Below are positions 4,943 through 48,205 of a DNA stretch of 64,000 bases, one piece after another. A model generated the notes under the pieces. That model had not been told where the DNA came from. It searched no databases and was given only the letters and a program-made list of their open reading frames with translations. Each line of letters opens with the position of its first letter. The first letter of the stretch is position 1. The DNA lies in IMG/VR virus record IMGVR_UViG_3300044630_002233, positions 7,787 through 71,786 of that record; one strand, 5' to 3'. A program made the translations under genes and the position numbers. Source of the stretch: a virus. Lineage: Duplodnaviria > Heunggongvirae > Uroviricota > Caudoviricetes.

Positions 4943-5509
4943 TTAACTAACGAAAGTCAATGTAGCTACGTCAGATACAACTTCTGCTGCGCCACCTGCT
5001 GATGTAACTTTAACACGATATTGATCGCCAGTATTGCCAACCAATTGTCCTGTCAATGCTAGTGAAGCAGATGTTGCGCCAGACACGTTTGTCCAACGAG
5101 TTGAGCCAACAGCTTTCTTCTGCCATTGATATGCTAGTGTACCACCACCAGAAGATACTGTTGCTGAAACGGAGAATGTTGCTCCACCAGATGAAGTATT
5201 TTGGTCAGCAGGTTGAGTACCGATAGTGATAGTGTATGTAGCGTCAGCTGCTTTAGTGTCATCAGCACGGTCGCCAGCGTTTGCTGCTGTTTCTGCCATT
5301 GCTACTAAGCATTCAGCTTTGTGACGTGTGTCACCAGCTGCGTCTACGAATGTGCTATACAACCACCAGCCTGCGCCAGTGATACCACGCTTCTTGTTTG
5401 TTTCTTGTTGTGCTTCAGTGATGTCTACAAAAATTGCCTTAGCAAGATCTGCAGTACCCAAGTACTTTGGACGATCAGCATCTGCGTCTGTTTTACCCCA
5501 TAGTGCCAT
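4943..5509 (-). CDS. Ig-like domain protein, probable capsid or tail decoration (188 aa)
   Basis: C-terminal TSSGGATFSVSATVSSGGGTLAYQWQKK...YRVKVTSAGG resembles a Big/Ig-like beta-sandwich. Confidence 0.45.
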   Translation of the reverse strand: MALWGKTDADADRPKYLGTADLAKAIFVDITEAQQETNKKRGITGAGWWLYSTFVDAAGDTRHKAECLVAMAETAANAGDRADDTKAADATYTITIGTQPADQNTSSGGATFSVSATVSSGGGTLAYQWQKKAVGSTRWTNVSGATSASLALTGQLVGNTGDQYRVKVTSAGGAAEVVSDVATLTFVS

Positions 5510-5524: not shown

Positions 5525-7903
5525 TTATTTGTTTGAGTTTGGTAGGTGTAATGGATAACCAGTATAATCTACGCCAGTGCGTTTCTTACCAGTAGCTGCA
5601 CCTTTTTGTCTTGCCCCAGAAGTCGAACCTGCTGGACGTCCACGACCACGCTTCTCACCAGTTGGTGCTGGTTTCTTTTTTGGTTTATCTTCATCGTCAT
5701 CATCGTCGTCGCCTTGATATGATGAACCGTAAGATCCTTTATGAACATAACGACCGTTTTTATCAGTCTCATATTCGTCTAGTTGTTCGACTGACTCATC
5801 AATTTCATCAATCTCTTCTTCTATTACTGGAAGATTTTGAATGATATCTTCTTTAAATTGTTTATACTTTTTCAAGTCTCTCTCCTCTTTTTGTGCTTTG
5901 TCAGCTTGTAGTTTAGCAGCGATTGCCATCTGACGACGCTTCTCTGCGCTCTTACCTGCAAACTGAGGAGCATCTGATTGTTTGAAATCTTTGATTACAA
6001 CACCCATATCTGCCTTGGCCATATCCATCTTTTCGTCTAACTCAACTTCTTCATTAGTTGGTTTAGGTAAGTGTGGTGTTACTTTGAATTTATGTAGTTT
6101 GCCATCGCCAAGTTCTTTGTGCGCTTGGATATGAACAGACTTACCATCATTCTTAACTACTTTACCTTGCATCTTATCGCCAGTCTTACTTGCGTAGAAG
6201 TCAACGTGTTGTCCACTAACTTTATGGATATCCATCTTAGCGTGGTCAGGATGCATAACACCTTGTGACGCATACTCACGACCATTGATGCGCATTTCGT
6301 TCATTTCATATTCTTCTTTTGAGAAAGTAGAACGAGAAGTGTTGTAGTCGTGAACCGCACTGGTACGCTTTTTGTTTATTGCCTTACCGAAATCGTCAGC
6401 CTCAGCAGAAGTTTTGAATGGCTTCTTATGAACTACAACATTACCGTATGCGTTCATTGCTTTTGAATGATATGTTCCTGTAGTATTATGTTTTACTACA
6501 CCAGCATGATGCCATGTTTGGCTGGCTTCATCAATAGCAACATCTTCTTTGGTTAAACGATCAACTGCTTTATTAACACCAGCCTTACGTTTCCATGAAT
6601 TTGCTTTGTATTTGTTCGCAAGTGTTGTTGATGCTTCTTTCGAACTAGGTTTTCTAGCCTTGTCTGCCATGTTCTCAAAATCAGCACCGATTTTACGTTG
6701 AATAGTAGCATCATGCGCAGCTTTTTTGATGTAAGAACCCAAAGTTGATTTTGACAATTCATCAATCTGATCAACTTCTTCTTTCATCTTTCCAGTAGGC
6801 ATACCATTGATTGGTTTCTTAGTGGCTTTATATGCTTTATGTTCTGGTGTTCCCTTAATATATTTTCTATCAAGAGTTGGAGCAACTGGAGCAGTTTCTT
6901 TCATAGAAGCAGTTTTACGTTGCGCCTTGTCGCTCATGTTAGTGACTTTGCCACGTGGATCTTTGTTCTGCGCCTTCTTCCAATCACCCTCATAACTCCA
7001 GCTTTTTACTTTACCTGATTTATCTTTTACAACAGTAGAAGTTTCTTCGTTATGAAGACCGACGTAGTTGTGGTCATGAACCTTATAACCACTCTTCTTG
7101 TAATATGCAAGAGCAGTGTTGATAGCAGTATCTTTATCTGGAGCAGTTACTTTTGCTCTGCGCATCTTTTTCTCATTACGCTGAGAAACCATAGTGTGAT
7201 TTGGATTTGAAATAGTAACAGAAACAACGTGCTTACCTTCACACATTGATTTCTTTTTCGCTTCTTTCATTTCCTTCTCGTCTTCATCTTCTTCGCCTTC
7301 ATCTTCATCTTCACATTCACACTCTGCTTCTGGCATACCGCAGTCTTCGCATTTTTCATCTTCATCTTCAGTTTCGTCTTCGTCTTCGTCTTCTTCGCCT
7401 TCGTCTTTATCTTCTTTTACTGGAACACAATTTGGAACTTTCTTACCGTTCTTCATTTTCATTCCAACGGCAGTATAACCTTTCCAGCATGCATCCTTTA
7501 GACCTTCTTCTTCTAAGTCAACTTCTTCTGACATAGTAGAATGTTTTACTTGTGTCTTTGGACCATCGTTGGCTGAATGAAAATGAACGTCCTCGCCTTT
7601 GCGACGAGCAGTCCAGTGACGTCCAGTTTCATCTTTGAATTTATGTTCTTGTTCGTCTTTTAATTTTGCGATTGCTTGATGATGTTCTGGGTGCAAAGGA
7701 ATAGAGAAGTCTTTACCGTGATGTACAGTCTTCATTGTACCCCAAGAATATTTCTTAGTAGTAACTGTAGCTTCAGTAATGTCTTCTTTCATAGCATTTT
7801 TGCTCTTGCGTAGCAAGTGAAAGTCATGTGCATCAACTTTGCCGTTTTTGTTTTTATCAATCTTATGTTGATTGCCCTTTAAGGCTTCTTTAAAAGATAA
7901 CAT
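5525..7903 (-). CDS. giant charged protein with a poly-acidic block, Cys cluster, EF-hand-like loop and C-terminal AT-hooks (792 aa)
   Basis: DKNKNGKVDAHD EF-hand-like loop. Long D/E runs flank CEDCGMPEAECECEDE. The protein is Lys-rich throughout, has a DDDDDDED block, and ends in an AT-hook KRGRGRPAGS...GKKRTG. The N-terminus MLSFKEALKG is like the T4 internal-protein targeting motif. Confidence 0.5.
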   Translation of the reverse strand: MLSFKEALKGNQHKIDKNKNGKVDAHDFHLLRKSKNAMKEDITEATVTTKKYSWGTMKTVHHGKDFSIPLHPEHHQAIAKLKDEQEHKFKDETGRHWTARRKGEDVHFHSANDGPKTQVKHSTMSEEVDLEEEGLKDACWKGYTAVGMKMKNGKKVPNCVPVKEDKDEGEEDEDEDETEDEDEKCEDCGMPEAECECEDEDEGEEDEDEKEMKEAKKKSMCEGKHVVSVTISNPNHTMVSQRNEKKMRRAKVTAPDKDTAINTALAYYKKSGYKVHDHNYVGLHNEETSTVVKDKSGKVKSWSYEGDWKKAQNKDPRGKVTNMSDKAQRKTASMKETAPVAPTLDRKYIKGTPEHKAYKATKKPINGMPTGKMKEEVDQIDELSKSTLGSYIKKAAHDATIQRKIGADFENMADKARKPSSKEASTTLANKYKANSWKRKAGVNKAVDRLTKEDVAIDEASQTWHHAGVVKHNTTGTYHSKAMNAYGNVVVHKKPFKTSAEADDFGKAINKKRTSAVHDYNTSRSTFSKEEYEMNEMRINGREYASQGVMHPDHAKMDIHKVSGQHVDFYASKTGDKMQGKVVKNDGKSVHIQAHKELGDGKLHKFKVTPHLPKPTNEEVELDEKMDMAKADMGVVIKDFKQSDAPQFAGKSAEKRRQMAIAAKLQADKAQKEERDLKKYKQFKEDIIQNLPVIEEEIDEIDESVEQLDEYETDKNGRYVHKGSYGSSYQGDDDDDDEDKPKKKPAPTGEKRGRGRPAGSTSGARQKGAATGKKRTGVDYTGYPLHLPNSNK

Positions 7904-8350
7904 TTATTGTTCTCCGCTAGATTTTAATGTTGATGTCAACATCCAGTTATGTTTTTTATGAGCATCGATTCTACCTGCTAGATAATCCAGCAACCCTTGT
8001 TCATTTGCTGCTTCAGCTAATCTGAATGCTTGCATTAGTGAAGATAAAACTGATTGGTTTACTTGAACCAAATCAGCAATCATACCTTGAGCACCAGTAG
8101 CTGATGTATCCATCACCGTTCTATATTTATCAAACTCAATAAGTGTATGTGGAGCAACAGCACCCAATGCACGAATCTCTTCAGCTGTTACATCAATGCT
8201 ACCATAAACCTCTTCGTATATTTTTCCAAAGAAGTCATGTAACATTGGAAACAAAATTCCTTCTACATTCCAGTGGTAGCCTTGCGCCTTTAGATACATC
8301 ATAAAAGAATCTGCCAACACCACTTTCATTTGTTCTTGTAGTTCATTCAT
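7904..8350 (-). CDS. dps: Dps/ferritin-like DNA-protection protein
   Basis: YHWNVEG ... LHDFFGKIYEE matches the Dps ferroxidase-centre signature (HWNxxG ... H/D-E); the size, 148 aa, is typical. Confidence 0.65.
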   Translation of the reverse strand: MNELQEQMKVVLADSFMMYLKAQGYHWNVEGILFPMLHDFFGKIYEEVYGSIDVTAEEIRALGAVAPHTLIEFDKYRTVMDTSATGAQGMIADLVQVNQSVLSSLMQAFRLAEAANEQGLLDYLAGRIDAHKKHNWMLTSTLKSSGEQ

Positions 8351-8351
8351 T

Positions 8352-8633
8352 TTAACAGTCCCATGCTTTTCTAGACCAGTAATTTGCGCTAGTCTTATCG
8401 GTTAAATTTCCCTGACCAGAAGATCTTGCACAATAAGATTTCTTGCGGTTAGGATTATTCTTCTTAATACTTAAAGTTTTATCCCCGAAGTTTACTTTTT
8501 GCGCTTTACCGTCGCCATCTGGATCAACATATACCTTCGACTTCTTAACATCACCAGCCATTGGTTTGTTAAGTGGTACAGTCTTACCTTGATAGGTAGC
8601 TTCGTTTAGTAGGAACTCTTTAAATGTTATCAT
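8352..8633 (-). CDS. hypothetical protein (93 aa) with a CTS-like N-terminus
   Basis: MITFKEFLLNE start; contains VYVDPDGDGKAQKVNFGD. Confidence 0.4.
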   Translation of the reverse strand: MITFKEFLLNEATYQGKTVPLNKPMAGDVKKSKVYVDPDGDGKAQKVNFGDKTLSIKKNNPNRKKSYCARSSGQGNLTDKTSANYWSRKAWDC

Positions 8634-11404
8634 TTTGTGTACTTACTATGAGATAGTCTTGCTTTTTCGATCTGACGAACACGTGGAGCCAATTTCATCG
8701 CAATTCTATTTAACACTGGTTTCATCTTAGCGATGCGTTGCTCTAGACGTTCTTTCTCAGCAACTGATAGAGAAGCCAATGGTTTCTTAGCAATACGTTG
8801 CTTGATTGCTTTAATAGCAAGTCTACGTGCACGAGTGTTAATTACAGATTGTGGAGAAGATCTCTTTAAAGCAACTTTCGCTTTTGCCATACGTTTAGAT
8901 TTAGATCTAGCGAAACGTGTCTTTGCTTTAATGCGTTCTAGTCTTGAAAGAACTTCATTCAACGCTTCTTCTTTTAGGCTGTCTTCTAGTTCTTCACCTG
9001 TTTCATCATCAACAATAGCCAACTCTTCATCATCATATCCGTCAAGAATATCTTCCCAATCGTTGTGTTGGTTAACAATGTCATCAATCTCTTTATCGCT
9101 TAAACTAAATTCTTCAACTTCTTCTGAGAAACGATCATTACCTACAGATCTTTTTTCTCCTGGACCATCAGATCCAATCTTAATTAAACGAGAAGGATGT
9201 TTCTTTCCATCTTTACCCATTTTCTCATCAGCTGCTACAACATATCCCTCTTCAACTTCTTCTTTGCGATACTTAGAATATTCTTTTTCTAAATCTAGTT
9301 TACGTTGCTTAACGTGCTCTTGATCCACATCTTTGTTCATTGACAATTGATGTAGTGTTTTACTTTTCTCTTTGTAATCACCGTGTGGGTCTTTTGCGTT
9401 TAAAGCTGTTTCGCTTAAATCAAATTCTTCTTTTACGTTATGCTTGATATTGAAACTGTTGTCTCTGCGAACAGTTCCAAGATGCTTAGCACCTAATTTG
9501 TTTAGAGAGTTGCGACCACTAGCATTCATTGTGTGGTTTACATCATAGCTACCAGATTTATGTTTGTAGATTTCAATACCATCATCTGGATCTCTATGAG
9601 TTTTAACTTTATCGCTCGCATACTTCATTGCAGATTTTAAATCTTTGAAGTTTTCTTTTATGTTTTCTTTTTCTTGCTCATGCTTTTTAGATAGTGTTTC
9701 TTTTTCTCTAGCATGTTTTGCAGCAAGAGCAGCCTTAGCAACTTCACGAGCAAGTTTCTTAGGATCTCCGTTGGCTTCGCCTAAAGAATAGCGAACTTTT
9801 TGTTTTCTTAGGTTATCGTTTTCTGGTTGATTGTGTAAGGTTTCACCAACCTTAGTCATGTTTCTTTCTAACCAATCTGGGATACCATCATTGTCTGTAT
9901 CCACTTCAGTCATTCTACCTTCAGTATCATAGCTGAGTAACTTATTATAGTATGCTTCTTTTAATTTTTGTGGCATTAAGTTTGTATCAAACTCAATACC
10001 GATATCAGTTGCCATCTTCAACATACGTCTTAGGATTTCATATGACTCAGCATTCAATGCTTTGTTCTTAATCTTACGCAATCCCATGTTAACAATCTGC
10101 TCTGGGTTTGTTGTAGCTTCAACATTATCAACACCAAGTGTAGTAGCAATAATTCTAGCTGCTTTAATTTGATCAGCAGAACTTGGTTTTAATGTTTTGT
10201 TTGTTAGGTTTTCAATTACAGTACCAGTTACTTTAACAGAATCATTCATCTCTTCTTTACCTGCTTCTTTATAGTCAGACGCAAGTTTTTCGATATGGTC
10301 GCCATGCGTTTTTAAATAGTTGTCATGGTGTTCTGCTTGACCCATCTTAGCAAGATGCTCTCTTGCTCTATCCATATGAACTTTGACATTGTTGACTACT
10401 TCGGGGGATGCTTGTCTTGTTGCAATCGCAGCCTTAAGATGTCCAAGGTATTCGTCAACTTCTTTCATTGCGTGTAGAATATCTACAGCACTTGCGTCGC
10501 CTGAGTGGATACTAGTGTTGAACGCATCAACAACTGAAGTATCTAAGTCGAAGTGTTTAGTTGTGTAGCCTTGCCAGCTAACTTGATTGTGATCTTCTGG
10601 ATTTTCAAAATCTTCTTGAAGATACACGTCTTTAATCCAACGAGTAAATTTCACGTCTGTTCCTTCTTCTGTTAATAGTAGATGATTTGAACCACGTTTA
10701 ACGACAACGCATTGTTTATTCTCACAAACAACAACGTCACCAACATTAAAGATCTCACCACGGAAATATTTTTCACGTAGGTCATCAACTGTTATATTTA
10801 ATGATTCTTTAACTGGCGCAAGGTCATACGCTTTGCGAATCTCATTCATCAATCTGCGTGCATCCAAGTCGGTAAGAGTTTTAGGAACACCCTTTTTAAA
10901 CTCAGAGAACTTTCCAGCCTTTGCTGCTTCACGCATCTTTGTACCTGACATACCTGTAGCGTTATCTGAATCTGGATCCCTTTCACCAGCAGAAACTACA
11001 GTAACGGTATCAAAGTTGAATTCAGTTCCGTTATACTTTTCTAAAATCTTTTTGTATTCTGCGATACGGTCGCTACCTGCAACCATAACAATATTCTTGT
11101 AACGCTTGTTTAATTCTTTGGCAGCTTCGATAAATGTTCTTACTTGTTCGTTGGCTGCTTTAAAATTAGCTCCAGGAAACATACGCTGGAGGTAATATAC
11201 TTTACGGGAAACTGGGAGTGGGTTTTGCTTCTTGTCTTCAGTCTTAGAAGCATAAATGACATGGTCTGCTCCCTGAGCAGACGCAACTTTTTGAACAGCT
11301 TTTACTAAGAGTTCGTGTCCTGTGGTTGGTGGCTGGAAGCGACCAAACGCAAATACAACCTTCTTGGAAGGCAACTCTTTAATTAGTTGTCTATATTTCT
11401 TCAT
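8630..11404 (-). CDS. NadM-type nucleotidyltransferase (NMNAT superfamily) fused to an ~750-aa charged C-terminal region
   Basis: N-terminal FGRFQPPTTGHELL (archaeal NMNAT GRFQPFHKGH motif) and MSGTKMRE (equivalent to ISST/SGTEIR). The C-terminal ~750 aa are Lys/Glu-rich and low-complexity. The N-terminus MKKYRQLIKELP is like the T4 internal-protein targeting motif. Confidence 0.6.
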   Translation of the reverse strand: MKKYRQLIKELPSKKVVFAFGRFQPPTTGHELLVKAVQKVASAQGADHVIYASKTEDKKQNPLPVSRKVYYLQRMFPGANFKAANEQVRTFIEAAKELNKRYKNIVMVAGSDRIAEYKKILEKYNGTEFNFDTVTVVSAGERDPDSDNATGMSGTKMREAAKAGKFSEFKKGVPKTLTDLDARRLMNEIRKAYDLAPVKESLNITVDDLREKYFRGEIFNVGDVVVCENKQCVVVKRGSNHLLLTEEGTDVKFTRWIKDVYLQEDFENPEDHNQVSWQGYTTKHFDLDTSVVDAFNTSIHSGDASAVDILHAMKEVDEYLGHLKAAIATRQASPEVVNNVKVHMDRAREHLAKMGQAEHHDNYLKTHGDHIEKLASDYKEAGKEEMNDSVKVTGTVIENLTNKTLKPSSADQIKAARIIATTLGVDNVEATTNPEQIVNMGLRKIKNKALNAESYEILRRMLKMATDIGIEFDTNLMPQKLKEAYYNKLLSYDTEGRMTEVDTDNDGIPDWLERNMTKVGETLHNQPENDNLRKQKVRYSLGEANGDPKKLAREVAKAALAAKHAREKETLSKKHEQEKENIKENFKDLKSAMKYASDKVKTHRDPDDGIEIYKHKSGSYDVNHTMNASGRNSLNKLGAKHLGTVRRDNSFNIKHNVKEEFDLSETALNAKDPHGDYKEKSKTLHQLSMNKDVDQEHVKQRKLDLEKEYSKYRKEEVEEGYVVAADEKMGKDGKKHPSRLIKIGSDGPGEKRSVGNDRFSEEVEEFSLSDKEIDDIVNQHNDWEDILDGYDDEELAIVDDETGEELEDSLKEEALNEVLSRLERIKAKTRFARSKSKRMAKAKVALKRSSPQSVINTRARRLAIKAIKQRIAKKPLASLSVAEKERLEQRIAKMKPVLNRIAMKLAPRVRQIEKARLSHSKYTK

Positions 11405-11456
11405 TTTTACCCATCTATAAAATATTACTTTATCTATTATTTAGTCAATCTAGACT

Positions 11457-12695
11457 TTAATATATCTCTCGCCATTGCATTCCAACACCAACAGTAGTAC
11501 TTTGAGTACCTAGATTTGTAGCTACTAGAACATAAATCTCTGAGTCTGTAGAATCATAGTTCTGAACAATATAGTTTTTCTTGGCTGATGAAGGTAGATC
11601 TGGTCCTGGAGCACCACCAGCTTTAAGAGCACCTTGCGTAGAAGCACCGACCCATCCTGCATCGATACAATCACCCTCAGTATATGCCGTAGCATCCACA
11701 CAATACTCAACTCCACTATCATCATCGACTGGAGTCCATGTTGTTTCGGTTAAATTAGATGTGTTAGGTAACTTAATCAATTTCCAACCGATATTCTCAC
11801 CACTACTAAAAACAGACAAATTACCCATACGAACAATCATTCTATTTTTATAGGTTCTAAAGGCATTCTTTAAACGAATCGCCATGATTGGTAGAGTCTG
11901 CCCAGAAGTAAGAGTTCTTGGAATGTTTGCTTGCGCCCAATCGGTTCCAGCTTCAACATACCCACCCTCTGACATAACAGTAGAACAGATTTGATCAAAG
12001 TAACCACCAGCAGTTGTTCCCACATTAACAAGTTCGCAACGGATAGGTAGGTTTGGATTACTCATATAAACTGTTGGCAAATTATTGCTGTTGTTAAATG
12101 CATGAGCGATTACGTATTGCCCATCATGAACAAAACCACAACGAACTCTACCAACACCAAGCCATTGAAAGTCAATCCAAAATAATTGCGTTTTGGTTAT
12201 ATCTAAATTGAAAGCACTAGATCCAGTACCATCACACTTATCTCCATTCCATTGAGACTGAGGTATTCTTCTTTCTGTTGGCGCACCAGTAACATAAGTT
12301 CTAACAACAATGTTTAGTGTACCATCACCTGTTTGTTCAAAATAGATACCATCATTATCATCAAAATACCCTGTTCGTTTAGTTACGTTTGGGACTGCAG
12401 TATAAAAGTTAAAACTAGAAAGGATAACCTGACTTTTTCCAGGCATGTAATGATGATAGAATTTGCTTTGATGAACAAGTCTTGAGTTTGGATTGTTTGA
12501 AGTTGTTAATCTTGCGCATGCTTGATTGGGTTGAAACGATAGTGTTGCACCATTAACAGCATAATCAATAAAGTTTGGATCTAAACCAAAGATGTGTTTA
12601 TAATCACCAAGCGTATATGGTTCACTGGTGCGTCCTCTTCCAAACGCATCAACATTTTGACTCTCCTGAAATAAATACGTCATACTATTCTCCAA
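11457..12695 (-). CDS. hypothetical protein (412 aa), possibly virion-associated beta-rich protein
   Basis: Long ORF with no recognisable catalytic motif. Confidence 0.4.
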   Translation of the reverse strand: MENSMTYLFQESQNVDAFGRGRTSEPYTLGDYKHIFGLDPNFIDYAVNGATLSFQPNQACARLTTSNNPNSRLVHQSKFYHHYMPGKSQVILSSFNFYTAVPNVTKRTGYFDDNDGIYFEQTGDGTLNIVVRTYVTGAPTERRIPQSQWNGDKCDGTGSSAFNLDITKTQLFWIDFQWLGVGRVRCGFVHDGQYVIAHAFNNSNNLPTVYMSNPNLPIRCELVNVGTTAGGYFDQICSTVMSEGGYVEAGTDWAQANIPRTLTSGQTLPIMAIRLKNAFRTYKNRMIVRMGNLSVFSSGENIGWKLIKLPNTSNLTETTWTPVDDDSGVEYCVDATAYTEGDCIDAGWVGASTQGALKAGGAPGPDLPSSAKKNYIVQNYDSTDSEIYVLVATNLGTQSTTVGVGMQWREIY

Positions 12696-13363
12696 CCATC
12701 TCTATAAATCATCTGTATACCACCGTTGTCTATTTTTAAGATAAATCCGTTTGGATCATTATCAACATTTCCGTGAACAATTATTGGAAATTTTGAACAT
12801 CTTCCAGATTCATCTTTGATTATAAGGTATCTACCATTCTTAACAATAGAAGGTAAAGTTAATGTTACTGTGCCAGCATAATTTACGCCAATATAATAAT
12901 CTTTTCTACCAACTGTATATGAAGGTGTTGTTACTAGCGTTGTTGGGTGATCTAGGTTTACTACGTCACCAGCGCCACCACCTGGACCAGCGTTTTGTAT
13001 TTTAGCGATCCACTGCTCAAGAAATTTTATTTTAGCATCAACAGTTTTAAATTGTTTTGTTAATGGATCTACTGGAGCTGCAATACCAGCTGGTGTGCTT
13101 AGATACTTATCAATATTTGGTATCTGTAGTTCTGGTGGTGTAACACCGACTGGAGTTGGTATTGGTGTTTCTTCTAGTAGAGTTGGATTTTCTTCTACAA
13201 GTTTTTCTTTATGTTTTTGTAGAGAAGCCAACTCCTCAAACAATACACTCAAATCAGATTGAATGTTTTCTTTTACTTCCTTGATAATCTTATGCTCTGG
13301 ACTTTTCTCTTTAGCCTCACGCATAAGACTGACTAAATCATTTAGACTGCTCATCGCTGCCAA
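12680..13363 (-). CDS. hypothetical protein (227 aa), N-terminal coiled coil plus C-terminal beta domain
   Basis: ORF overlaps its neighbours by a few nt on the same strand. Confidence 0.4.
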   Translation of the reverse strand: MAAMSSLNDLVSLMREAKEKSPEHKIIKEVKENIQSDLSVLFEELASLQKHKEKLVEENPTLLEETPIPTPVGVTPPELQIPNIDKYLSTPAGIAAPVDPLTKQFKTVDAKIKFLEQWIAKIQNAGPGGGAGDVVNLDHPTTLVTTPSYTVGRKDYYIGVNYAGTVTLTLPSIVKNGRYLIIKDESGRCSKFPIIVHGNVDNDPNGFILKIDNGGIQMIYRDGWRIV

Positions 13364-14580
13364 CCTTTGATAATTTCTGGCGAGAAGTTTGCCTTACTAA
13401 ACTCTAAGCGATCAACGATCTTTACTGCGCCACCACGCAAGTGGTCAATAGCAACAAACCCTTCTACGCCAGTCGTCTTGAATCCATTAGCAGTCTTTAA
13501 GAAAGTCTTCATAGATCCAGCTTTATTCATCTTGGCGATAATCAATTTCTTGGCTTCAGTCAAAACATTAGCCAACTCAAATACGCTCTCGATAGACTTC
13601 CTGTCATTGTTTGCAAAGAAAGCCATTACAGCTTTGCGCTTTTCGTTGACACCAGCCTTACCTTTTTCTGTCTTCAACTTATCCATGTCTTTCTGATATT
13701 TCCCATGGATATAATCAAACAACTCATCAACGTGTTTCTTTGGATTAGAGATAGTTTCTCCAGCACGCACCTTGGAGTTATTGAAAGTCTTGACCAATGT
13801 AAGCAACTCGGTATTGTTAGAAATGCTGTTTAGAGTATTAGCATTAATAGACTTGAACAACACACCTGCTTTTGATAGTAGGGAAGTTACTTCAGTAGTT
13901 TCTGATTCCGTAAAGGTAGCAGTTCCAGAAACATCTTTGTAGTTGGCGTCATCCATCCAGATTGAACCAACCTTGTTAAATTTGTCAACAATACCTTTAC
14001 CGAAAGTAGCCTTCATTGTTTCAAACGAACTACCTTCATATGTAGTATGCCAAACAACACCAATCTTAGCAGCACGTAGTTTAGTGGCAAGAGGACTATC
14101 ATATGGAACAGCGTATACAATAGTGTTAGGATGGAAGGTTACATACTTCTTACCATCAATCGTTTCTGTTTTCAAATCGTTAGTGAACATCAAGTCGCCT
14201 TGATAAACACCAGACTTGATGCCCAACTTCTTAAACTCTGCCAATGCAACTTTCAGTTTAGCTGCCAAGTCGCCTTCAGTATCCGCATCGATTTCTTTTG
14301 GTGTCTTATAAACCTTTGGCTCTTTATTGAAGACACCTTTCTTTGCTACAAAGAATTTGCCATCACGTGGATCAATACCAGCAAATACAGCTGGCGCACC
14401 GTCCCACTTAACAGTAGTAGTAATTTTTGACTTGCTATTACCAGCCAACATATCACGCAAGTCTTGTAGGAAGTTAATTGCTTTACGTGTACCCAGAACA
14501 CCTTCGTTGAAGATTAAATCCTCAACGTGTTCCATATGGGTATTCTTTTCTTCTCTAATATACTCTTTTAAGTTTAACAT
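13351..14580 (-). CDS. rnlA: RNA ligase 1 (T4 RnlA-like) nucleotidyltransferase
   Basis: Motif I TVKWDGAP (KxDG), and motifs IV/V EGFVAIDHLRGGAVKIVD aligning with T4 RnlA EGYVAVMKDGSHFKIK. CTS-like start MLNLKEYIREE. Confidence 0.55.
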   Translation of the reverse strand: MLNLKEYIREEKNTHMEHVEDLIFNEGVLGTRKAINFLQDLRDMLAGNSKSKITTTVKWDGAPAVFAGIDPRDGKFFVAKKGVFNKEPKVYKTPKEIDADTEGDLAAKLKVALAEFKKLGIKSGVYQGDLMFTNDLKTETIDGKKYVTFHPNTIVYAVPYDSPLATKLRAAKIGVVWHTTYEGSSFETMKATFGKGIVDKFNKVGSIWMDDANYKDVSGTATFTESETTEVTSLLSKAGVLFKSINANTLNSISNNTELLTLVKTFNNSKVRAGETISNPKKHVDELFDYIHGKYQKDMDKLKTEKGKAGVNEKRKAVMAFFANNDRKSIESVFELANVLTEAKKLIIAKMNKAGSMKTFLKTANGFKTTGVEGFVAIDHLRGGAVKIVDRLEFSKANFSPEIIKGWQR

Positions 14581-15194
14581 TATTTCACCAACTTTATTTG
14601 TCCATCAGGTAAAGCGAAGTAGGCATTAAACCTAATCATCGGAAACTCTCTACCTAATTTTAGGAATTCTTTTAGGTTGCTCATGCTGTCATCAAACAGA
14701 GCAACTCTTGAAAATTGTTTAGTCTTTAAATACTCACGAATAATAATCGCCTTCTTAACAGCAGGGATATTATTGTCTTCCATATTACCAGCACGTTCAA
14801 CACGAACCTTGTCAATATCGAAACCATGCTTACGGAAGGTTGCTAGAAATTTGTCACGATTATCAAAGTTCGCTCTAGCAGTAACAATGATAACTTTGTT
14901 CAAAGGGTTTCTGTCTGTAGCGGAAACCAACTTGCTTGCTGTATTTAGCATCTTAGCGATTGGCTTCGATTCTTTATAAAACTTGGCAGCATCTTTGAAT
15001 TCAGAAAAATCGAAGGACTCACCAGCCCCAAGTTTGTAATTATTAAACTCTTGGTTGGTCAGCTTCTTTAGGACTGCGCCATCTTTTTTAACAGCGATCT
15101 GGGCAGTGGTATGGAAGAGGGTGTCGTCAATATCGAATATGGATAGACGACCCAGCGTTTCTTCTTCTTTTAGTAGATATTCTTTAAACCTCAT
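14580..15194 (-). CDS. HAD-family phosphatase (polynucleotide 3'-phosphatase-like)
   Basis: HAD motif I FDIDDTLFH, motif II IIVTAR, and motif IV ALFDDS. No P-loop kinase domain is present. Confidence 0.55.
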   Translation of the reverse strand: MRFKEYLLKEEETLGRLSIFDIDDTLFHTTAQIAVKKDGAVLKKLTNQEFNNYKLGAGESFDFSEFKDAAKFYKESKPIAKMLNTASKLVSATDRNPLNKVIIVTARANFDNRDKFLATFRKHGFDIDKVRVERAGNMEDNNIPAVKKAIIIREYLKTKQFSRVALFDDSMSNLKEFLKLGREFPMIRFNAYFALPDGQIKLVK

Positions 15195-15200
15195 ACCTTT

Positions 15201-15229
15201 ATTATACCTGAATTCTGAATTATTGTAAA
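15201..15229 (-). promoter_or_regulatory. Early sigma70-like promoter (TTTACA-N17-TATAAT)
   Basis: Minus strand reads TTTACAATAATTCAGAATTCAGGTATAAT. The -10 ends 6 nt before the ATG at 15194, so the mRNA may be leaderless. Confidence 0.6.
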
Positions 15230-15235
15230 GTATTC

Positions 15236-15252
15236 CCCTACGGTTTGTAGGG
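15236..15252 (-). terminator. Stem-loop CCCTAC-N5-GTAGGG immediately upstream of the early promoter (PeSL-like cassette)
   Basis: Inverted repeat read from the sequence. The same hairpin-plus-promoter arrangement recurs at 35.5 kb and 38.05 kb. Confidence 0.5.
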
Positions 15253-15263
15253 TTATTATTTTA

Positions 15264-16688
15264 TTAACTAACCTTGTAGTGGACAGAGGAAAAGGCATTC
15301 ATTTTCTTCGCTGCCAGATACATTTTTTTGTATATCGCTGCAGGGTTTGACGCTGTTTCTAATGCGTAAATATAATACAAAAGAACCACTGCTCGTTTGA
15401 CTTCATATTCTGACATCACATCAGTCATACCAGAAACCTTAACCATTTTGAATTGATCCTTAGCTACGTAGGCAGCAAATTTCTCATAGAACTTTTGATT
15501 ACCCATAGCCTTAATTTGAACAGCAACAGTTCCTGCTACTTTCGATACTTTCTTCATATCATCAGTTACAGTAATCATTCCTGGGAATTGAGTATTTAAC
15601 ATGTCTCTAGAAATAGCGCCATCCCAAACTTTGGCTGTCTCTGGTTGCCCTTCGCCATATGTATTAAGTTCATTAGATTTACCACGTGGTCTAAATCTAA
15701 ATCTGTAATTTACATCATCTTTAAACACTTTAAATTGGGGAAGTATATCGAAATAAGAATTAGAAACTTTATACTCGAACTTTTTCCATGGTTTGGTATA
15801 ATTGATGTTCTTAATGTATTTTGCATCAGTCTCAATCTTAGAAATTGTAGCCTTTGGACCAGCAACCTTTTTCAGAGAGATACCAATAATTTCTTTAGAA
15901 ATAAATTTATCTTCAACAAATTTGTTTAGGTCATCGATACCAGCACTCTCAGCGAGAAGTTTTTTATAAAGCGCATCAACAGTTGTTCCTAACTTTGATA
16001 TGCTTGTTTTCTTAACTGCCCATATATCTGATGGGTTCCAGTTATCTTTACTATCAGGAAGAACTTTTGGATCAGTTATTTGATTTAGAAAAGCAGGTTT
16101 CTTCGGATTACTGTCACGATAGAATTCATAACTTTTCATGCTAGACTTTGGTATAACAGTTAGAATAGCATTGATAGTTTTCTCAAAGGACTCATGCCAT
16201 GTTTTATCAAAATCAAACTTAACTGTCTTATTGATTAAATCTTTGGTTGGCATTTTGCCATTGTTAGCGATATACTCCAGACAGAATCTAGTTCCATCTT
16301 CTTGTTGAGCAGTTGTAGGTGTTTTAGAAGAAAGCGCATTGCCTTCCTGATCTATAACATTCTTGTAACCACCACCAGATTTATAGATGTTTACTTTATC
16401 TGCGCCAACTGTAATTAAAAACTTATTGTCTTTTTGATCAGTTACCTTAGCAGTTTTGATTGTGCTGATCTCAGAGATAGCAGCGATAAAACTTTTGGGG
16501 TCAACAATTTTTAACATTGGAACCCCACCTGTTATTTTCCCATCATCTGTTTCGAGAAAGGTAACAGCAGCAAAATCTTTTAATTTAGGAATGATGACTT
16601 TTAATGCTGGCTTCTTATCCACCAGCATATTAAATCCTGCCTTACCCTGAAAATATAACTTTGCCATGCGCCCTCTTATAACAGTCAA
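15264..16688 (-). CDS. hypothetical protein (474 aa)
   Basis: Long ORF with no clear motif. A possible PD-(D/E)xK-like stretch, PSDIW...EIIGISLKK, is weak. Confidence 0.45.
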   Translation of the reverse strand: MTVIRGRMAKLYFQGKAGFNMLVDKKPALKVIIPKLKDFAAVTFLETDDGKITGGVPMLKIVDPKSFIAAISEISTIKTAKVTDQKDNKFLITVGADKVNIYKSGGGYKNVIDQEGNALSSKTPTTAQQEDGTRFCLEYIANNGKMPTKDLINKTVKFDFDKTWHESFEKTINAILTVIPKSSMKSYEFYRDSNPKKPAFLNQITDPKVLPDSKDNWNPSDIWAVKKTSISKLGTTVDALYKKLLAESAGIDDLNKFVEDKFISKEIIGISLKKVAGPKATISKIETDAKYIKNINYTKPWKKFEYKVSNSYFDILPQFKVFKDDVNYRFRFRPRGKSNELNTYGEGQPETAKVWDGAISRDMLNTQFPGMITVTDDMKKVSKVAGTVAVQIKAMGNQKFYEKFAAYVAKDQFKMVKVSGMTDVMSEYEVKRAVVLLYYIYALETASNPAAIYKKMYLAAKKMNAFSSVHYKVS

Positions 16689-16694
16689 TATAAA

Positions 16695-17414
16695 CTATTT
16701 AGGTCGTTTACATGCACGAAGTTTTCGTTCGTACTTTCGATCCCACTTAGAAACCTGCTGAATTATCTTTGGTATGGCTTCGTTGTTACGGAAGTCATAG
16801 TCAAATGTTCTGAGGATGTAGTGGAGGGTTTTAGAATCACGTTTCTTTTTACAACGTGTCAGCAGTTCGCTGATAGTGATGTTGGGTCGTTTTATTTTAA
16901 AGTCGAGATAAACGCAATGAGCATATGCTTGAATCTCATCAAACTCAGAAAGGTATTTTCTCTCTTCGGTTTTCTTTGATGTCTTGGCTTTCTTGTAAGG
17001 AACAACATACCCAGACCATTCATCGCCACGTCTATCATATTGCATGAAGTGTATCAACTCATGCATCTGTGTCTGGATCAATCTATACTTGAAAGATTCC
17101 CATGCTTCGTCAGTAAACTGGAATTTGTTATAGTCTTTCTTGCCGTGGATTATCAGAGTACATTGTCTAAACTCCGCATCATATTCACCACCGACAGCCA
17201 TGTAGTTCTCATATACTTTGGCTTTTGAAAGTTCTGGTCGCCACTCTATTTTGGTGCGCCATTTTTTGAAGTAATTTGTTAGACCTCTTTTATCGTTGCG
17301 ATACTTGTCTAGGTCTACCCACACTTTTGCAGGAATGAGTTTGGCTCTAAATGGACGCTCATAAAAATTGAGCATCTCCATCCAATCGAAGTTGAGTTCT
17401 TTGAGGAAGCGCAT
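16695..17414 (-). CDS. putative zinc metallopeptidase (HExxH)
   Basis: Single HELIH motif (TQMHELIHFMQYD); the protein is basic. Confidence 0.4.
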   Translation of the reverse strand: MRFLKELNFDWMEMLNFYERPFRAKLIPAKVWVDLDKYRNDKRGLTNYFKKWRTKIEWRPELSKAKVYENYMAVGGEYDAEFRQCTLIIHGKKDYNKFQFTDEAWESFKYRLIQTQMHELIHFMQYDRRGDEWSGYVVPYKKAKTSKKTEERKYLSEFDEIQAYAHCVYLDFKIKRPNITISELLTRCKKKRDSKTLHYILRTFDYDFRNNEAIPKIIQQVSKWDRKYERKLRACKRPK

Positions 17415-17477
17415 GGTAAAATTATACTCCCCGTGGCAAAGTTAGAGTCCACCACATATTTAGGGTTTAGCATAATT

Positions 17478-17930
17478 TTACAATGTAAAAAGGACTGGAG
17501 CCTCCATACCCTTCTCCCAGAAATACAACTCTACTTCTGGTGGTAGTTTCTTCCTCATTCCTCTAAGAACCTTTTTGTTGTCCTCATAGTGTCGTTGAAC
17601 ACCAAGTTCCAAAACTTTGGAAGTCTTGTAGTTTACAACATTTTCTACAGTTCGTGTATCCGTAAGTAAGTGGAAACTTAGGACACGTCCAGTATAGTTT
17701 TTATCCAGCCATTCTTTTGTGATATGGTGGATTTTTGATTCAGCCTTCCTAGCTGAGATGGCATGGAAGGTTTCCTCTACTGGTTCAATAAGACGTTCCG
17801 CAGACGCATACCATTCATAAAGAAAATCTTTACGTGCACGACGTTGCTCGCCATTCATCCTACCCCACTTTGTTTCGTTAGCAGGTGGCTGAGCAGCGAG
17901 AACACCGTCAATATCATAAGATACTATCAT
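17478..17930 (-). CDS. 5'(3')-deoxyribonucleotidase-like HAD nucleotidase
   Basis: MIVSYDIDGVL (DxDGVL, the motif of the NT5C family). The likely start is the ATG at 17930, which overlaps the upstream stop (ATGA); the track ORF begins 19 codons earlier. Confidence 0.5.
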   Translation of the reverse strand: MIVSYDIDGVLAAQPPANETKWGRMNGEQRRARKDFLYEWYASAERLIEPVEETFHAISARKAESKIHHITKEWLDKNYTGRVLSFHLLTDTRTVENVVNYKTSKVLELGVQRHYEDNKKVLRGMRKKLPPEVELYFWEKGMEAPVLFTL

Positions 17931-18934
17931 AGGAAACTTAGATCTATCTTGTCTGTATTTAAAATATACTGTTTCTGCGCCAGCCAAATCTTCTCACGTT
18001 TCTCAACTGAGAGAGAAGCAAACTTCTCGATCGCTTCCGCATTATCCGCAGGAAAACACCAAACCAATCCGTTGTTTCCTTGTGGTGCGCAGACAGGAAT
18101 GCCAGCATAGACAGCATGGTAAGCACGACCAGTACGCCAGCCTGAACGCTTATGCTTGTCATCATAAACAGCAAGACAACCATGATACTTCTGATAGAAA
18201 GCACGTCTATCTCTTTGCTGTGGATTCTCAACGATATTCAACCCAACGTAGTCTGACCATTCAGTTTCTTTACCTGCTACTTCAAGATATGATGACTTTG
18301 TATATTCTTTGAAGTGTTTAGTGCGACCATTTGGGCGACCGATATAAACTACCTTCTCGATTGACCCAGCATGAAAGTTTGCGAAGTCCATACCTGAAGC
18401 CATCGGTAAGTCAATAGTAGTTGTACCTTCTGGGCATTTTAGAATGGTAGCAACTTCAGATGGTACTGCAGCATTAGCAGCGATAGTCCAACGTGACCAA
18501 TCTTCATCAGGTAACAACTCCCAAAGGAATGGTAGGTCTGGGTCATCGTTAAGGAACACAATTTTACCCTTGTGCGCTTTGATCATCTCAACAGTTTTAT
18601 CCCAATACTTCTGATAGAACTGTAGGTTAGTACCACCAAACTCAAGCACAAGTGTATCACACTCTTGGTAAATATCAAAAGATTCAAAGCCATCGTTGGC
18701 TGTTGCTTCAGTTGGTTCTGATAAAGGGATGATACGCATACCTGCGCCAAGTACGTTCTTAAAAAATGCTACACGTTTCTCTACCCATGCACCACGAATA
18801 CCATTCTCTTGGTTAGTTAAACCAATCTTACCTGATACCCTGCGGTAGCCAATCTTCTTTCCTGTGTTACTAGAGTTGGCTGAGTAGAACCACTCTAGTA
18901 ACTTTTCTTCACCTAGAAACTCATGTAATGACAT
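17927..18934 (-). CDS. T4 beta-glucosyltransferase-like DNA glycosyltransferase (GT-B fold)
   Basis: KIVFLNDDPDLPF is comparable to T4 BGT KIYYLFTDIRLPF. VVYIGRPNGRTKHFKEY is comparable to BGT VIYGGSFRSGQRESKM. The length, 335 aa, is close to BGT at 351 aa. The similarity is recalled from memory, not aligned. Confidence 0.4.
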   Translation of the reverse strand: MSLHEFLGEEKLLEWFYSANSSNTGKKIGYRRVSGKIGLTNQENGIRGAWVEKRVAFFKNVLGAGMRIIPLSEPTEATANDGFESFDIYQECDTLVLEFGGTNLQFYQKYWDKTVEMIKAHKGKIVFLNDDPDLPFLWELLPDEDWSRWTIAANAAVPSEVATILKCPEGTTTIDLPMASGMDFANFHAGSIEKVVYIGRPNGRTKHFKEYTKSSYLEVAGKETEWSDYVGLNIVENPQQRDRRAFYQKYHGCLAVYDDKHKRSGWRTGRAYHAVYAGIPVCAPQGNNGLVWCFPADNAEAIEKFASLSVEKREKIWLAQKQYILNTDKIDLSFL

Positions 18935-18940
18935 ATTATG

Positions 18941-20254
18941 TTATCCTAAAAAGTCTGCGAGAGAACCAGCACTTGCCTTTGGATGATAAGTGTGAAGCAT
19001 ATGTTCTCCACCTTTCTCACGCAAGAAGTCATACCATTCTTCCTCTTCCCACATTCCTGGAGAAACACCATTCCACAATTTCTTATACAAGCGATGCTCA
19101 GTATTCAAGCGACGTTGTTCAACGTATTCAAAACGAAAATCTTCATATTCTTTGCTACCAAGTTCTAGCATTTTTTCACGGAAGTATACAACCAAACTTA
19201 CACGCTCTGAACCTTCTTCACAAACAATAGGTGTATTGCCATGGATGATTTCGTGGTTATTAACCAACAACAAATCACCTGGACGCACGTTAACAGCCAT
19301 ACGGATCTCAGGGAAAATCAAATACCCACCTGAGTAACGACCATCGTTAGATAATGTCAACAGATTTGAGAGACCAGAATCCAAATCACCAGCATCACGA
19401 TGAGCAGCAGTGCGGAATGTTTTGTTTACAGTAACTGTTGTAAATGGTGTTTCTGGGATAAGGAATCTAGAATCAATTTTCTTAGCTGCTGCCATTTGAT
19501 TGCCATATCTCCAAGGCAACAACTCAGCAAAACCTTTAGCCAAGTGCTGTAAGAATGGGTATGCCATTTTAAACTTATCAAAGTTGTCTCTTGTATAAGT
19601 TGTAGCACGACCATAAGGGATACGTGGGTAGCGATCAAACCAACCAGCGATACCAGAATCAACTGGATTGCCATAAGATGTTTCGCTAATCATCTTCATG
19701 GTTTCTTCACATGACTTAGCACGTTCTTCTGGCGTCATAGTTTTGATGGAATCAACCCACTCATCAAAATTAAATTTACCACGGAAACGTGAGATAACCC
19801 AAACATTGTTTTTGCCAGAGCCAAGTGCCTTTAAACGTGACTCTGCTGTTGGATATTTTGAGCGAACATTTTCAATTGGGTCACCAGAAAATAGAGATGC
19901 CTTGCGACCATCAAGAAGCGCATTAATCATTTCTTCCTGATAGTTAGTAACCCACTCACGTCCTTCACCATTAACTTGTGTTCCAGCTTTAATACCTGAA
20001 GCCAAGCCACGATTCTCTGTTCGTTGAGCAGCTTCTCTTAGTCCATGATATGCTGCGTCTTGTTCTTCTTTAGTAAAGAAGTTCTTACGGAATTTGAAAG
20101 CGATCTTCTGTTCGTTTGGCGCTTCACCATAACCAACTGGCAAATAGCAATCAGTATCTTCCTCGATTAGAATATCATAATTTGATTCATCAAGAAACAT
20201 ACCCATAAGATTTTCACAATCATGTTTAGTTTCTGCTACAATAACTCGTGTCAT
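18941..20254 (-). CDS. 2OG-Fe(II) dioxygenase, TET/JBP-like (nucleobase hydroxylase candidate)
   Basis: AAHRDAGDL...LSNLLTL is comparable to TET2 AHAHRDLHNM...STLVCTL. The distal His is in HEIIHGNTP, followed by RVSLVVYF (the RxS 2-oxoglutarate contact). It sits next to a glucosyltransferase-like gene. Confidence 0.4.
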   Translation of the reverse strand: MTRVIVAETKHDCENLMGMFLDESNYDILIEEDTDCYLPVGYGEAPNEQKIAFKFRKNFFTKEEQDAAYHGLREAAQRTENRGLASGIKAGTQVNGEGREWVTNYQEEMINALLDGRKASLFSGDPIENVRSKYPTAESRLKALGSGKNNVWVISRFRGKFNFDEWVDSIKTMTPEERAKSCEETMKMISETSYGNPVDSGIAGWFDRYPRIPYGRATTYTRDNFDKFKMAYPFLQHLAKGFAELLPWRYGNQMAAAKKIDSRFLIPETPFTTVTVNKTFRTAAHRDAGDLDSGLSNLLTLSNDGRYSGGYLIFPEIRMAVNVRPGDLLLVNNHEIIHGNTPIVCEEGSERVSLVVYFREKMLELGSKEYEDFRFEYVEQRRLNTEHRLYKKLWNGVSPGMWEEEEWYDFLREKGGEHMLHTYHPKASAGSLADFLG

Positions 20255-21669: not shown

Positions 21670-21955
21670 CAACACCACCTGAATAAACAATTGAATTATT
21701 TTTTAGTCCTTCTTCAATCAAATGATGAAGGATCTCACCTACAGTTTGCTCGAAGGCTGGCTTGTCAAACTTTTCGTCTTCAATAACATTATGCATGGTA
21801 TATTCAAACGACAACTTTGCAGACGAACCATCGGGCATTTCTGATACTTCTACTTTACCATATTCATATATTATACCTGAAAATTGACCACCTGTCAACT
21901 CTACAGTATAGATTGCAGTATCATTTGTGTGTTCAATCAGCTTGAACGGTGTCAT
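21629..21955 (-). CDS. hypothetical protein (108 aa)
   Basis: ORF between uvsX and gene 41; overlaps both slightly. Confidence 0.4.
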
Positions 21956-47551: not shown

Positions 47552-48205
47552 TTATTTGATTTTACTCAAAAAATTCTGGAAAGCACGGATCTTGGCTTCC
47601 GTTAAATTCTTCGATGATGTCTTACGTATTACACGCTTAACTTCATCTATATGTTTCTCCACAAATTTCCCATCAACGAAAACCCACTCCTTACCTTCCA
47701 TAATGCCACGAACGAAAGCATCTGGTGCTGAAGGGTCGGCAACGATATCTGCTGCGGTTGACAACATGAAATCGTCTTGAACAATTTGTACACCGTCTTT
47801 GTTTTCTTTAAGTGAACCCATTGCTCTTGAAGAAACACCTAGATTTGCGCCACCGTCTAAAAGACCTCTAGCGATCATACCGTTTGGTGTTTCTAAAATC
47901 TTTGCTCTACCAACGTAGTTACTACCTTCCTTGCGCAATGATGTAATCATATGCGAAACAAGATGAAGGTTAATGCCTGGACCGTCTGGATGTCCCAGTT
48001 CGCCAAAGGCACGATTATTCTGCACTGTTTCTTCCATGTAACGAGCAACTTCTTTATCCATAATTTCAGATGGATACATGCGACCGTTACGGTTTTTAAT
48101 ATCAGCTTGCAAGAAGATACCTTCAATAAAGTAGTCTTTTTTCTTTCCTACTTTTTCTTCTACAACAAACTTAATGTCTTGTACTTCTTCTCTAATGAGT
48201 TTCAT
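47552..48205 (-). CDS. 21: prohead protease (gp21)
   Basis: GELGHPDGPG motif, size 217 aa, and position match T4 gp21. Confidence 0.8.
   Translation of the reverse strand: MKLIREEVQDIKFVVEEKVGKKKDYFIEGIFLQADIKNRNGRMYPSEIMDKEVARYMEETVQNNRAFGELGHPDGPGINLHLVSHMITSLRKEGSNYVGRAKILETPNGMIARGLLDGGANLGVSSRAMGSLKENKDGVQIVQDDFMLSTAADIVADPSAPDAFVRGIMEGKEWVFVDGKFVEKHIDEVKRVIRKTSSKNLTEAKIRAFQNFLSKIK

Follow-up and report, generated by a model that had tools for sequence, protein, structure and literature searches.

Why should a nucleotidyltransferase fusion, a ligase-like protein, a phosphatase and a small basic protein of unrelated families begin with almost the same ten residues? The question is raised by a 64,000-nucleotide stretch of the IMG/VR virus record IMGVR_UViG_3300044630_002233 (positions 7,787 to 71,786; hereafter the window, meaning the whole stretch analysed), in which an island of genes is bounded by gp41 (20266-21690) and the primase gene (1135-2244). 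A sequence-only reading of this DNA had likened seven N-termini of the island to the capsid-targeting sequence (CTS) that internal proteins (IPs) of T4 carry. Here we show that the motif is real, enriched in the island, conserved at positions 4, 7, 8 and 10 across unrelated protein families and under selection at the protein level. We consider it reasonably likely that at least four island proteins (the 93-residue protein, the 924-residue transferase fusion, the DUF6267 protein and the HAD phosphatase) open with T4-type capsid-targeting propeptides, formed by their first 9 to 11 residues. By analogy with T4, injection into the host along with the DNA is the probable fate of the enzymes that bear them.

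All seven N-termini were found at the genes to which they had been assigned, on the minus strand and each at the earliest start codon that its open reading frame allows. That they follow one pattern holds for five of them, while the 792- and the 239-residue proteins do not fit. The common pattern consists of Met, hydrophobic or aromatic side chains near positions 4 and 7, and [L/I]-x-E at about positions 8-10, with a shift of one residue allowed. An [L/I]-x-E site near positions 8-10 is present in five of the seven listed proteins, the register being one residue off in the HAD and the 335-residue proteins of the window. None of the five conforming leaders is preceded by another possible start codon in its frame, and independent database gene calls concur; starts were checked against 360 close database homologs and, for the transferase family, 150 representatives at 50% identity. 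The leader genes, the candidates and the non-conforming genes are as follows.

8352..8633, minus strand: 93-residue small basic protein, DUF6321-like; leader MITFKEFLLNE, residues 1-11, nucleotides 8601-8633.
8630..11404, minus strand: 924-residue transferase fusion; leader MKKYRQLIKE, nucleotides 11375-11404.
13351..14580, minus strand: 409-residue DUF6267 ligase-like nucleotidyltransferase; leader MLNLKEYIRE, nucleotides 14551-14580.
14580..15194, minus strand: 204-residue HAD-superfamily phosphatase; leader MRFKEYLLKE, nucleotides 15165-15194.
17927..18934, minus strand: 335-residue protein adjoining a Tet/JBP dioxygenase gene; possible leader MSLHEFLGE.
12680..13354, minus strand: 224-residue extra candidate; MSSLNDLVSLMRE, hydrophobic at positions 4, 7 and 8, with a non-canonical [IMV]-x-E at 11-13.
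5525..7903, minus strand: 792-residue charged protein; MLSFKEALKGN, non-conforming.
16695..17414, minus strand: 239-residue HExxH protein; MRFLKELNFD, non-conforming.

With the one-residue shift allowed, the pattern is matched by 5 of the 12 island genes and by 1 of the 59 other genes of the window, a genuine enrichment. The sole outsider is UvsX. Internal methionines offer the same context in 2 of 364 cases. Shuffled N-termini gave a mean of 0.47 hits against six observed, and none of 2000 shuffles reached six. The core [FL]KE[FY][LI] was seen at three N-termini, as against three instances among 18,427 internal positions. At annotated starts in the first 100 kb of T4, a genome more AT-rich than the window, a stricter pattern picked out ipII, ipIII and gp61.1 only; in 165 kb of S-SM1 the strict motif marked the cytidylyltransferase only.

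All genes of the window are on the minus strand and belong to a T4-like myovirus, among them DNA polymerase, UvsX, gp41 helicase, gp61 primase, portal, gp21 protease, gp22 scaffold and gp23. The gp23 capsid protein is 63% identical to its counterpart in Synechococcus phage ACG-2014d, and the nearest cultured relative by island genes is Methylophilales phage Melnitz (Kyanoviridae); the source phage is one of the Kyanoviridae-like aquatic relatives of T4. A search for near-identical island DNA in cultured phages gave no match, and relatives were found through their proteins. Close relatives are present on 80 IMG/VR contigs, one of which is 100% identical across the DUF6267 gene. For the conservation survey, genes were called in these 80 contigs and then sorted into families. 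Database homolog searches with DUF6267 and the S-SM1 transferase returned close relatives only, of at least 70-82% identity, and the search of 50% representatives added distant ones.

Across these relatives the distribution of the motif is bimodal: it is carried by 60-100% of the members of seven unrelated families and by 0% in about 55 others, with 24% in the UvsX family. The seven comprise the HAD phosphatase, the family of the 93-residue protein (about 120 residues), DUF6267 and the cytidylyltransferase, followed by families of about 400, of 145-203 and of 54 residues; the C-terminus of the 145-203-residue family resembles that of the 93-residue protein. In the contigs and the database homologs alike, positions 4, 7, 8 and 10 are conserved and positions 2, 3, 6 and 9 vary, and F, Y or L is kept at positions 4 and 7 across the orthologs of four families. 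DUF6267 proteins share the consensus M-x-x-L-K-x-[YF]-[IL]-x-E at 78 loci (46 distinct N-termini) and in 120 database proteins. The HAD leader reads M-x-x-F-x-E-Y-[IL]-x-E-E, with the motif in 20 of 20 orthologs. Orthologs of the 93-residue protein read M-[IL]-x-F-K-E-[FYW]-[LI]-x(1-2)-E-A-T-Y-Q-G, so that L/I-x-E is retained despite an indel, as seen in the register variants FLLNE, WLNE and FIQE. In the transferase family, 112 of the 150 representatives carry a leader with [LIVM]-x-E, and several of the remainder keep positions 4, 7 and 8 and have lost the Glu; register shifts here too retain L-x-E (LIKELP as against LVESLP or LLEGLP).

The conserved unit is the peptide. In 58 distinct DUF6267 starts, synonymous and conservative codon changes are found at positions 4, 7 and 8. 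The first 33 nucleotides (11 codons) of four window genes with similar N-termini are 39-64% identical, and the DNA upstream of the motif genes of the window is 27-43% identical, which is about random. Since the codons vary and the upstream DNA is unrelated, selection acts on the peptide and not on a nucleotide cassette.

The borderline N-termini were judged by their orthologs. In the 335-residue family the N-terminus is near-invariant in 28 orthologs and continuous with a conserved LLEWFYS, so that leader and fold are indistinguishable; this protein is a possible further bearer. The 224-residue candidate had been concealed by a TTG start, and its probable real start is the ATG giving MSSLNDLVSLMRE. 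Its orthologs read MSELNDFLKL[IMV][AS]E, which does not satisfy the search pattern, and it is a further, weaker, possible candidate. Three proteins were rejected as bearers. The 792-residue protein has no L-x-E, and the N-termini of its orthologs run on into a conserved EF-hand-like loop. None of 41 orthologs of the HExxH protein matches the motif, and a block M-x-FLE-x-ANFDWM is conserved throughout that family. The UvsX hit is a chance match to the pattern, because in Melnitz and S-SM1, too, this N-terminus belongs to the conserved sequence of UvsX.

Judged from the alignments and predicted models, the leader is attached to the N-terminus of these proteins rather than to their catalytic folds. 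Among the HAD proteins, 4-9 linker residues of variable composition separate it from the GSLT-IFDIDDT motif with its invariant DxDDT strand, and the AlphaFold model shows a helix at residues 3-11 of low confidence (predicted local distance difference test, pLDDT, 59), followed by coil and then the domain. The DUF6267 model likewise has a helix at residues 4-10 (pLDDT 46), and the Pfam model PF19782 (DUF6267) begins at residue 13, past the leader. About 65 extra residues stand between leader and transferase domain in S-SM1. Homologs in jumbo phages that are not T4-like have no leader: the transferases of RaK2 and 121Q begin directly at the first beta strand, and the DUF6267 homolog of XaC1 lacks it. 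The DUF6267 homologs of the cyanophages S-SM1 and S-CRM01 have no leader either. Homology links the body of the 93-residue protein to the C-terminal domain of the 650-residue transferase fusion of Melnitz; as a stand-alone gene in the window, the module has a leader of its own. In the fusions P0324, P0334, P0343, P0346, P0354, P0355 and P0361, which are among the 50% representatives, the transferase domain is internal, with [LV]-x-E just before it (for example SLMENNNKK, TLVESSADT); gp21 may cut there internally and so part the two enzymes after packaging.

In T4, ipII and ipIII start with MKTYQEFIAEA and ipI with MKTFKEFTSTTTPVSTITEA (MKTFKEF...), the IP leaders being 10-19 residues long with the start M-K-T-[YF]-[QK]-E-F. 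Amber-suppressor mutagenesis of the IPIII leader assigned targeting mainly to residues 4 and 7 and processing to residues 8 and 10, and Asp at position 10 stops processing and not targeting (PMC9026906). The resemblance to the T4 CTS noted in the first reading thus extends to function-mapped residues, as the positions conserved here (4, 7, 8 and 10) are those mapped in IPIII. Like the leaders of T4 IPI, IPII and IPIII (Mullaney & Black 1996; PMC9026906, PMC3012670), those of the window are N-terminal, hydrophobic or aromatic at 4 and 7, and carry [L/I]-x-E at 8-10. As in T4, one leader is found on several unrelated, fast-evolving cargo genes, with gp21 and gp22 in the same genome. In contrast to the T4 IPs, which are small and basic with near-identical leader DNA, leader DNA in the window is degenerate, and among the cargo are large enzymes (a 105-kDa transferase fusion, a ligase-like protein and a HAD protein), for which targeting and cleavage are predicted from sequence. 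A separate observation concerns T4 gp61.1 (NC_000866 18966-19130; L083), a 54-residue protein whose start, MKTFKEFIKED, is a perfect CTS-like leader and whose gene is placed in an interval, gp61 to gp41, that is syntenic with the island. A 53-54-residue family with a leader of the gp61.1 type (MLSFKQFNEENN, MLNFKDYIEEENN) is present on the related contigs. By its sequence, gp61.1 may be an unrecognised internal protein of T4.

Other known systems resemble the island in part. The propeptide of T4 Alt, MELITE, does not follow the aromatic pattern at positions 4 and 7. Alt, an ADP-ribosyltransferase, is nevertheless a parallel as an enzyme with a short N-terminal propeptide that is cut by gp21 and delivered with the DNA; unlike the proteins considered here, it is processed at the C-terminus too (reviews including PMC9026906) and has a different enzymology. 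Many ejection or inner-body proteins in the heads of the giant phages phiKZ, 201phi2-1 and SPN3US (PMC5694885) are cut after Glu by a T4-gp21-like prohead protease, and some of them are enzymes (virion RNA polymerase). Unlike the window leaders, the phiKZ-type cleavage motif is S/A/G-x-E, the propeptides often exceed 100 residues and there is no short leader with the 4/7/8/10 pattern. Closest are the virion-associated enzymes of cyanophages. The 924-residue protein is an ortholog of their cytidylyltransferase in the same neighbourhood after gp41, and the virion-associated enzymes of S-SM1, S-CREM2 and S-CRM01 whose sequences were compared have the same leader. To this cyanophage virion-enzyme set the window lineage adds cargo of the DUF6267, HAD and DUF6321 types.

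The virion proteomes of relatives offer an independent view of the bearers. NMNAT-like transferases, kinases and S-adenosylmethionine (SAM) hydrolase were detected in purified particles of T4-like cyanophages (S-SM1, S-SCSM1, S-CBWM1, S-CRM01, S-CREM2; PMC3037559, PMC9602691, PMC10665884). NMNAT-like proteins are described as frequent in cyanophage virions, with cytidylyltransferase orthologs in S-SM1, S-CREM2 and S-SCSM1. In S-SM1 virions the cytidylyltransferase T4-GC190 was detected with 25 peptide counts, together with its neighbours GC1453, GC1454, GC1455, GC425 and GC426 (Sullivan et al. 2010). We found that GC190 and these neighbours are contiguous genes within the gp41-to-gp61 interval and that the start of GC190, MKKFSAFLNEAE, is a perfect match to the leader. 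GC1455 starts with MLSFKELQEKK, which is similar to the start of the 792-residue protein, and BLAST finds no sequence similarity between the two proteins.

A scan of the S-CREM2 genome gave five annotated starts with the pattern, four of which belong to proteins of the published virion proteome (PMC10665884): gp6 SAM hydrolase (MKDFDSFLEE), gp13 (MKDLHSFLTE), gp14 kinase (KRFDAFLTE) and gp154 cytidylyltransferase (MKNFSSFLTE). The fifth, gp175 (OR473000 139029-139196; 55 residues, MNWLKNYLIE), is not in the proteome, although it lies between the detected gp174 and gp176; it may be too small for detection. All three S-CREM2 virion proteins classed as 'regulatory' by the authors carry the strict motif. 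Motif and virion detection were associated in one-sided Fisher tests on small numbers (p=0.012 for all genes, p=0.0012 for non-structural genes). In S-CRM01 the Ser/Thr kinase g130 starts with MISFDQFLSE, g129 with MKKLDQFLTE and the transferase with MKLFNQFFKE; a Ser/Thr kinase in S-CRM01 virions is mentioned by way of citation in the S-CREM2 paper (PMC10665884). Our search of full-text literature gave no paper connecting the CTS with cyanophages. Apart from these bearers, the S-CREM2 virion protein gp12 (OR473000 7704-10313; 'Cas9-like', 28 peptides) and S-CRM01 g128 (L121 9397-9948) have a common N-terminal extension of 17-20 residues, M-x-x-x-W-x-x-W-S, followed by a leader-like F-[IM]-x-E-A at 22-26, which recalls the 19-residue propeptide of T4 IPI.

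The head genes with which such leaders would interact are encoded in the window.

47552..48205, minus strand: gp21 prohead core protease (Peptidase_S77; PF03420, E=6.7e-38), the presumed processing enzyme.
46497..47504, minus strand: gp22 scaffolding core (T4_CASP; PF25623), the presumed docking partner.
45140..46471, minus strand: gp23 major capsid protein.

By analogy with T4, the leader would form a short amphipathic helix, of which residues 4 and 7 dock the protein on the gp22-based core during prohead assembly. The gp21 serine protease would then cut after [L/I]-x-E at positions 8-10 and leave the mature protein free inside the head, where it would remain alongside the packaged DNA and reach the cell when it is infected. 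The predicted mature N-termini are ATYQGK (93-residue protein), LPSKKV (transferase), EKNTHM (DUF6267) and EETLGR (HAD), and the mature leader-bearing proteins are predicted to be basic, with isoelectric points (pI) of 8.8-9.8 (9.8 for the 93-residue protein after a cut at L-N-E). Within gp22 there are 17 [LI]-x-E sites in 335 residues, or 5.1 per 100 residues against 1.38 overall (3.7-fold), and gp23 has four within its first 52 residues and one in the remaining 390. Their density in the scaffold and their clustering in the propeptide of the capsid protein are consistent with a gp21 specificity that has been conserved.

Several alternatives account for parts of these data. AT-rich codon usage, raised by the sequence-only reading itself, might yield N-termini rich in K, E, F and L by chance; the 35-41% GC (guanine plus cytosine) of the genome is in line with it, and UvsX, outside the island, fits the loose pattern. 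This source is refuted by the shuffles (none of 2000), the internal-methionine contexts (2 of 364) and the retention of the motif across orthologs, and stricter patterns in T4, S-SM1 and S-CREM2 mark almost only known virion proteins or those detected by mass spectrometry; chance is scarcely credible as an explanation. A nucleotide element located where the genes start and acting as DNA or RNA, be it a recombination cassette for module shuffling or a translation-initiation signal, would have precedent, as T-even IP genes share near-identical CTS-coding DNA and hyperplastic regions shuffle via conserved cassettes; moreover, the island genes overlap or abut and are translationally coupled. We hold it to be very improbable in view of the varying codons at the conserved residues and of the low identity within the leaders (39-64%) and upstream of them (27-43%). 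It is also improbable, if less strikingly so, that each leader is the first helix of its own fold, conserved family by family and alike through convergence. The 335-residue and HExxH proteins, whose N-termini are conserved continuously into the domain, behave in this way, and in fusions the transferase domain has a segment of this kind ahead of its first beta strand. That one four-position pattern recurs in seven unrelated families and is missing from all of about 55 others is difficult to reconcile with it, as are the variable spacing to the catalytic domain (4-9 residues in the HAD linker, about 65 in S-SM1), the position of the leader outside the Pfam model and its low pLDDT, and the leaderless homologs of RaK2, 121Q and XaC1.

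The chief competitor accepts a real shared N-terminal module and gives it another function, such as docking to a membrane, a chaperone (Hsp20) or the replisome, a role as degron or in stability, or oligomerisation, the detection of bearers in virions then being incidental. We regard this as unlikely and nonetheless to be reckoned with, given that the data establish a shared protein-level signal and not its binding partner, that a late promoter was not found within 80 nucleotides upstream of the island genes and that contamination is entertained by the authors of the proteome papers. It would have to explain why the conserved positions are those mapped in the T4 CTS, including P3 and P1 of the gp21 site, why L-x-E survives register shifts and why the leader is missing from homologs in phages that lack the T4 head system. 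In phages covered by proteomes, five of seven bearers were found in virions (two phages; three enzyme families and one small protein), and S-CRM01 g130 would be a sixth by secondary citation. Genes next to these bearers but without the motif had no product detected.

A number of points weigh against capsid targeting all the same. DUF6267-cytidylyltransferase fusions keep a similar segment as interdomain linker, and part of the cytidylyltransferase leader could be structural. The proteomic support comes from virions of relatives, not of the window phage or Melnitz, the contingency tests have the small numbers already given, and the leader-bearing DUF6267 and HAD orthologs fall outside the published proteomes. 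The S-SM1 homolog of DUF6267, which has no leader, is missing from the virion proteome table of that phage. S-CRM01 g130 is reportedly the virion kinase, as known through the secondary citation only. The authors of the proteome papers allow for co-purification of abundant non-structural proteins and give no targeting signal. Finally, the T4-type late promoter TATAAATA was not found within 80 nucleotides upstream of any island gene, so that expression of these genes during head assembly is presumptive. The same sequence precedes gp22 and the genes at 44508-45041, 63293-63622 and 4272-4868. Overlap and abutment of the island genes (5525-18934) suggest that they are transcribed together in a long unit entered from the replication genes, and the promoter scan neither supports nor excludes late expression of the island.

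What the cargo proteins do can be stated in part. The 924-residue protein, first labelled an NMN (nicotinamide mononucleotide)-adenylyltransferase fusion, is a nucleotidyltransferase of the HxGH type, with GRFQPPTTGH and a domain at residues of about 12-270; the NMNAT assignment proper is weak and below threshold (TIGR01526, 22.6 bits, cutoff 341; PF01467, 20.2 bits, cutoff 21). The match to phrog_3041/395 'cytidyltransferase' is strong (E=2.7e-67), and the transferase domain had no informative match among PDB sequences. A long charged tail follows, the C-terminal 124 residues of which have a pI of 11.2. For the DUF6267 protein the earlier label of RNA ligase is a lead drawn from an invariant KWDG motif, to which the fold adds no significant match: the best Foldseek matches of the model (pLDDT 70.6) are the RNA ligases REL1, Rnl2 and Palaeococcus Rnl at a non-significant E>0.3, and PDB sequences gave no match. 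The phosphatase label of the 204-residue protein stands, with an invariant FDIDDT (DxDDT) and a fold match to the class B acid phosphatase AphA (Foldseek E=2.9e-4); T4 PNKP ranks 50, and phrog_415 matches with E=4.6e-9. The description of the 335-residue protein as glucosyltransferase-like found no family match and no support.

It is an attractive, if rather doubtful, idea that this abundant aquatic T4-like lineage pre-loads its capsid with a counter-defence kit (ligase-like, PNKP-like HAD and NMNAT-like proteins), which would be injected with the DNA and would repair tRNA or RNA or restore NAD+ before phage expression begins. Such cargo might be at work in the opening seconds of infection, countering, for instance, restriction, tRNA-cleaving or NAD-depleting defences. 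Should the lineage pre-load its capsid in this way, what all Kyanoviridae-like phages inject could be predicted by the simple leader M-x-x-[FYL]-x-x-[FYL]-[LI]-x-E and no other data. T4-type leaders would offer a means of predicting injected proteins from sequence for some of the most abundant phages of oceans and lakes. Bearers already seen in the virions of relatives include SAM hydrolase and kinases. A T4-type leader on such odd virion enzymes would provide a mechanism where papers could not tell cargo from contamination. For the window itself, four to six new cargo proteins are predicted, including ligase-like and phosphatase enzymes, and the T4 CTS, already a tool for packaging foreign proteins, would reach another phage family.

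Two further genes in or at the end of the island are related to virion proteins by annotation or by their N-terminus.

11457..12683, minus strand: 408-residue phrog_1645 'virion structural protein' within the island, without leader.
4943..5509, minus strand: 188-residue head-decoration-like protein at the island end; MALWGKTD..., with an N-terminal block like that of the S-SM1 virion protein GC425.

The BLAST alignment of the 188-residue protein with GC425 spans the first 16 residues only. The virion protein T4-GC15 was considered as an ortholog of the 408-residue protein and rejected, as the two share no similarity in BLAST and GC15 has another place in the S-SM1 genome. Between leader genes, a Dps/ferritin-like protein without leader is encoded at 7904-8350 on the minus strand (PF00210, E=2.5e-19; phrog_3636 'DNA binding protein').

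The 792-residue protein combines an N-terminal EF-hand-like loop, DKNKNGKVDAHDF, with a long acidic E/D tract containing Cys pairs and a C-terminal AT-hook-like basic tail with GRGRP. Homology to residues 107-191 of this protein is found in the middle of the 650-residue transferase fusion of Melnitz, and modules are therefore shuffled among island proteins. Directly next to the gene of the 335-residue protein, a 2-oxoglutarate-Fe dioxygenase of the Tet/JBP type is encoded at 18941-20254 on the minus strand (PF12851, E=2.3e-23), and the two may form a pair for hypermodification of DNA bases. Among the replication genes, two minus-strand genes at 31596-32390 and 23062-23505 have N-termini of the secretion type, the pair comprising MKSVFKISALVAAVALATGC, with a lipoprotein-like Cys, and the signal-peptide-like MKKLYYAVGFVFLALMLPAQA.

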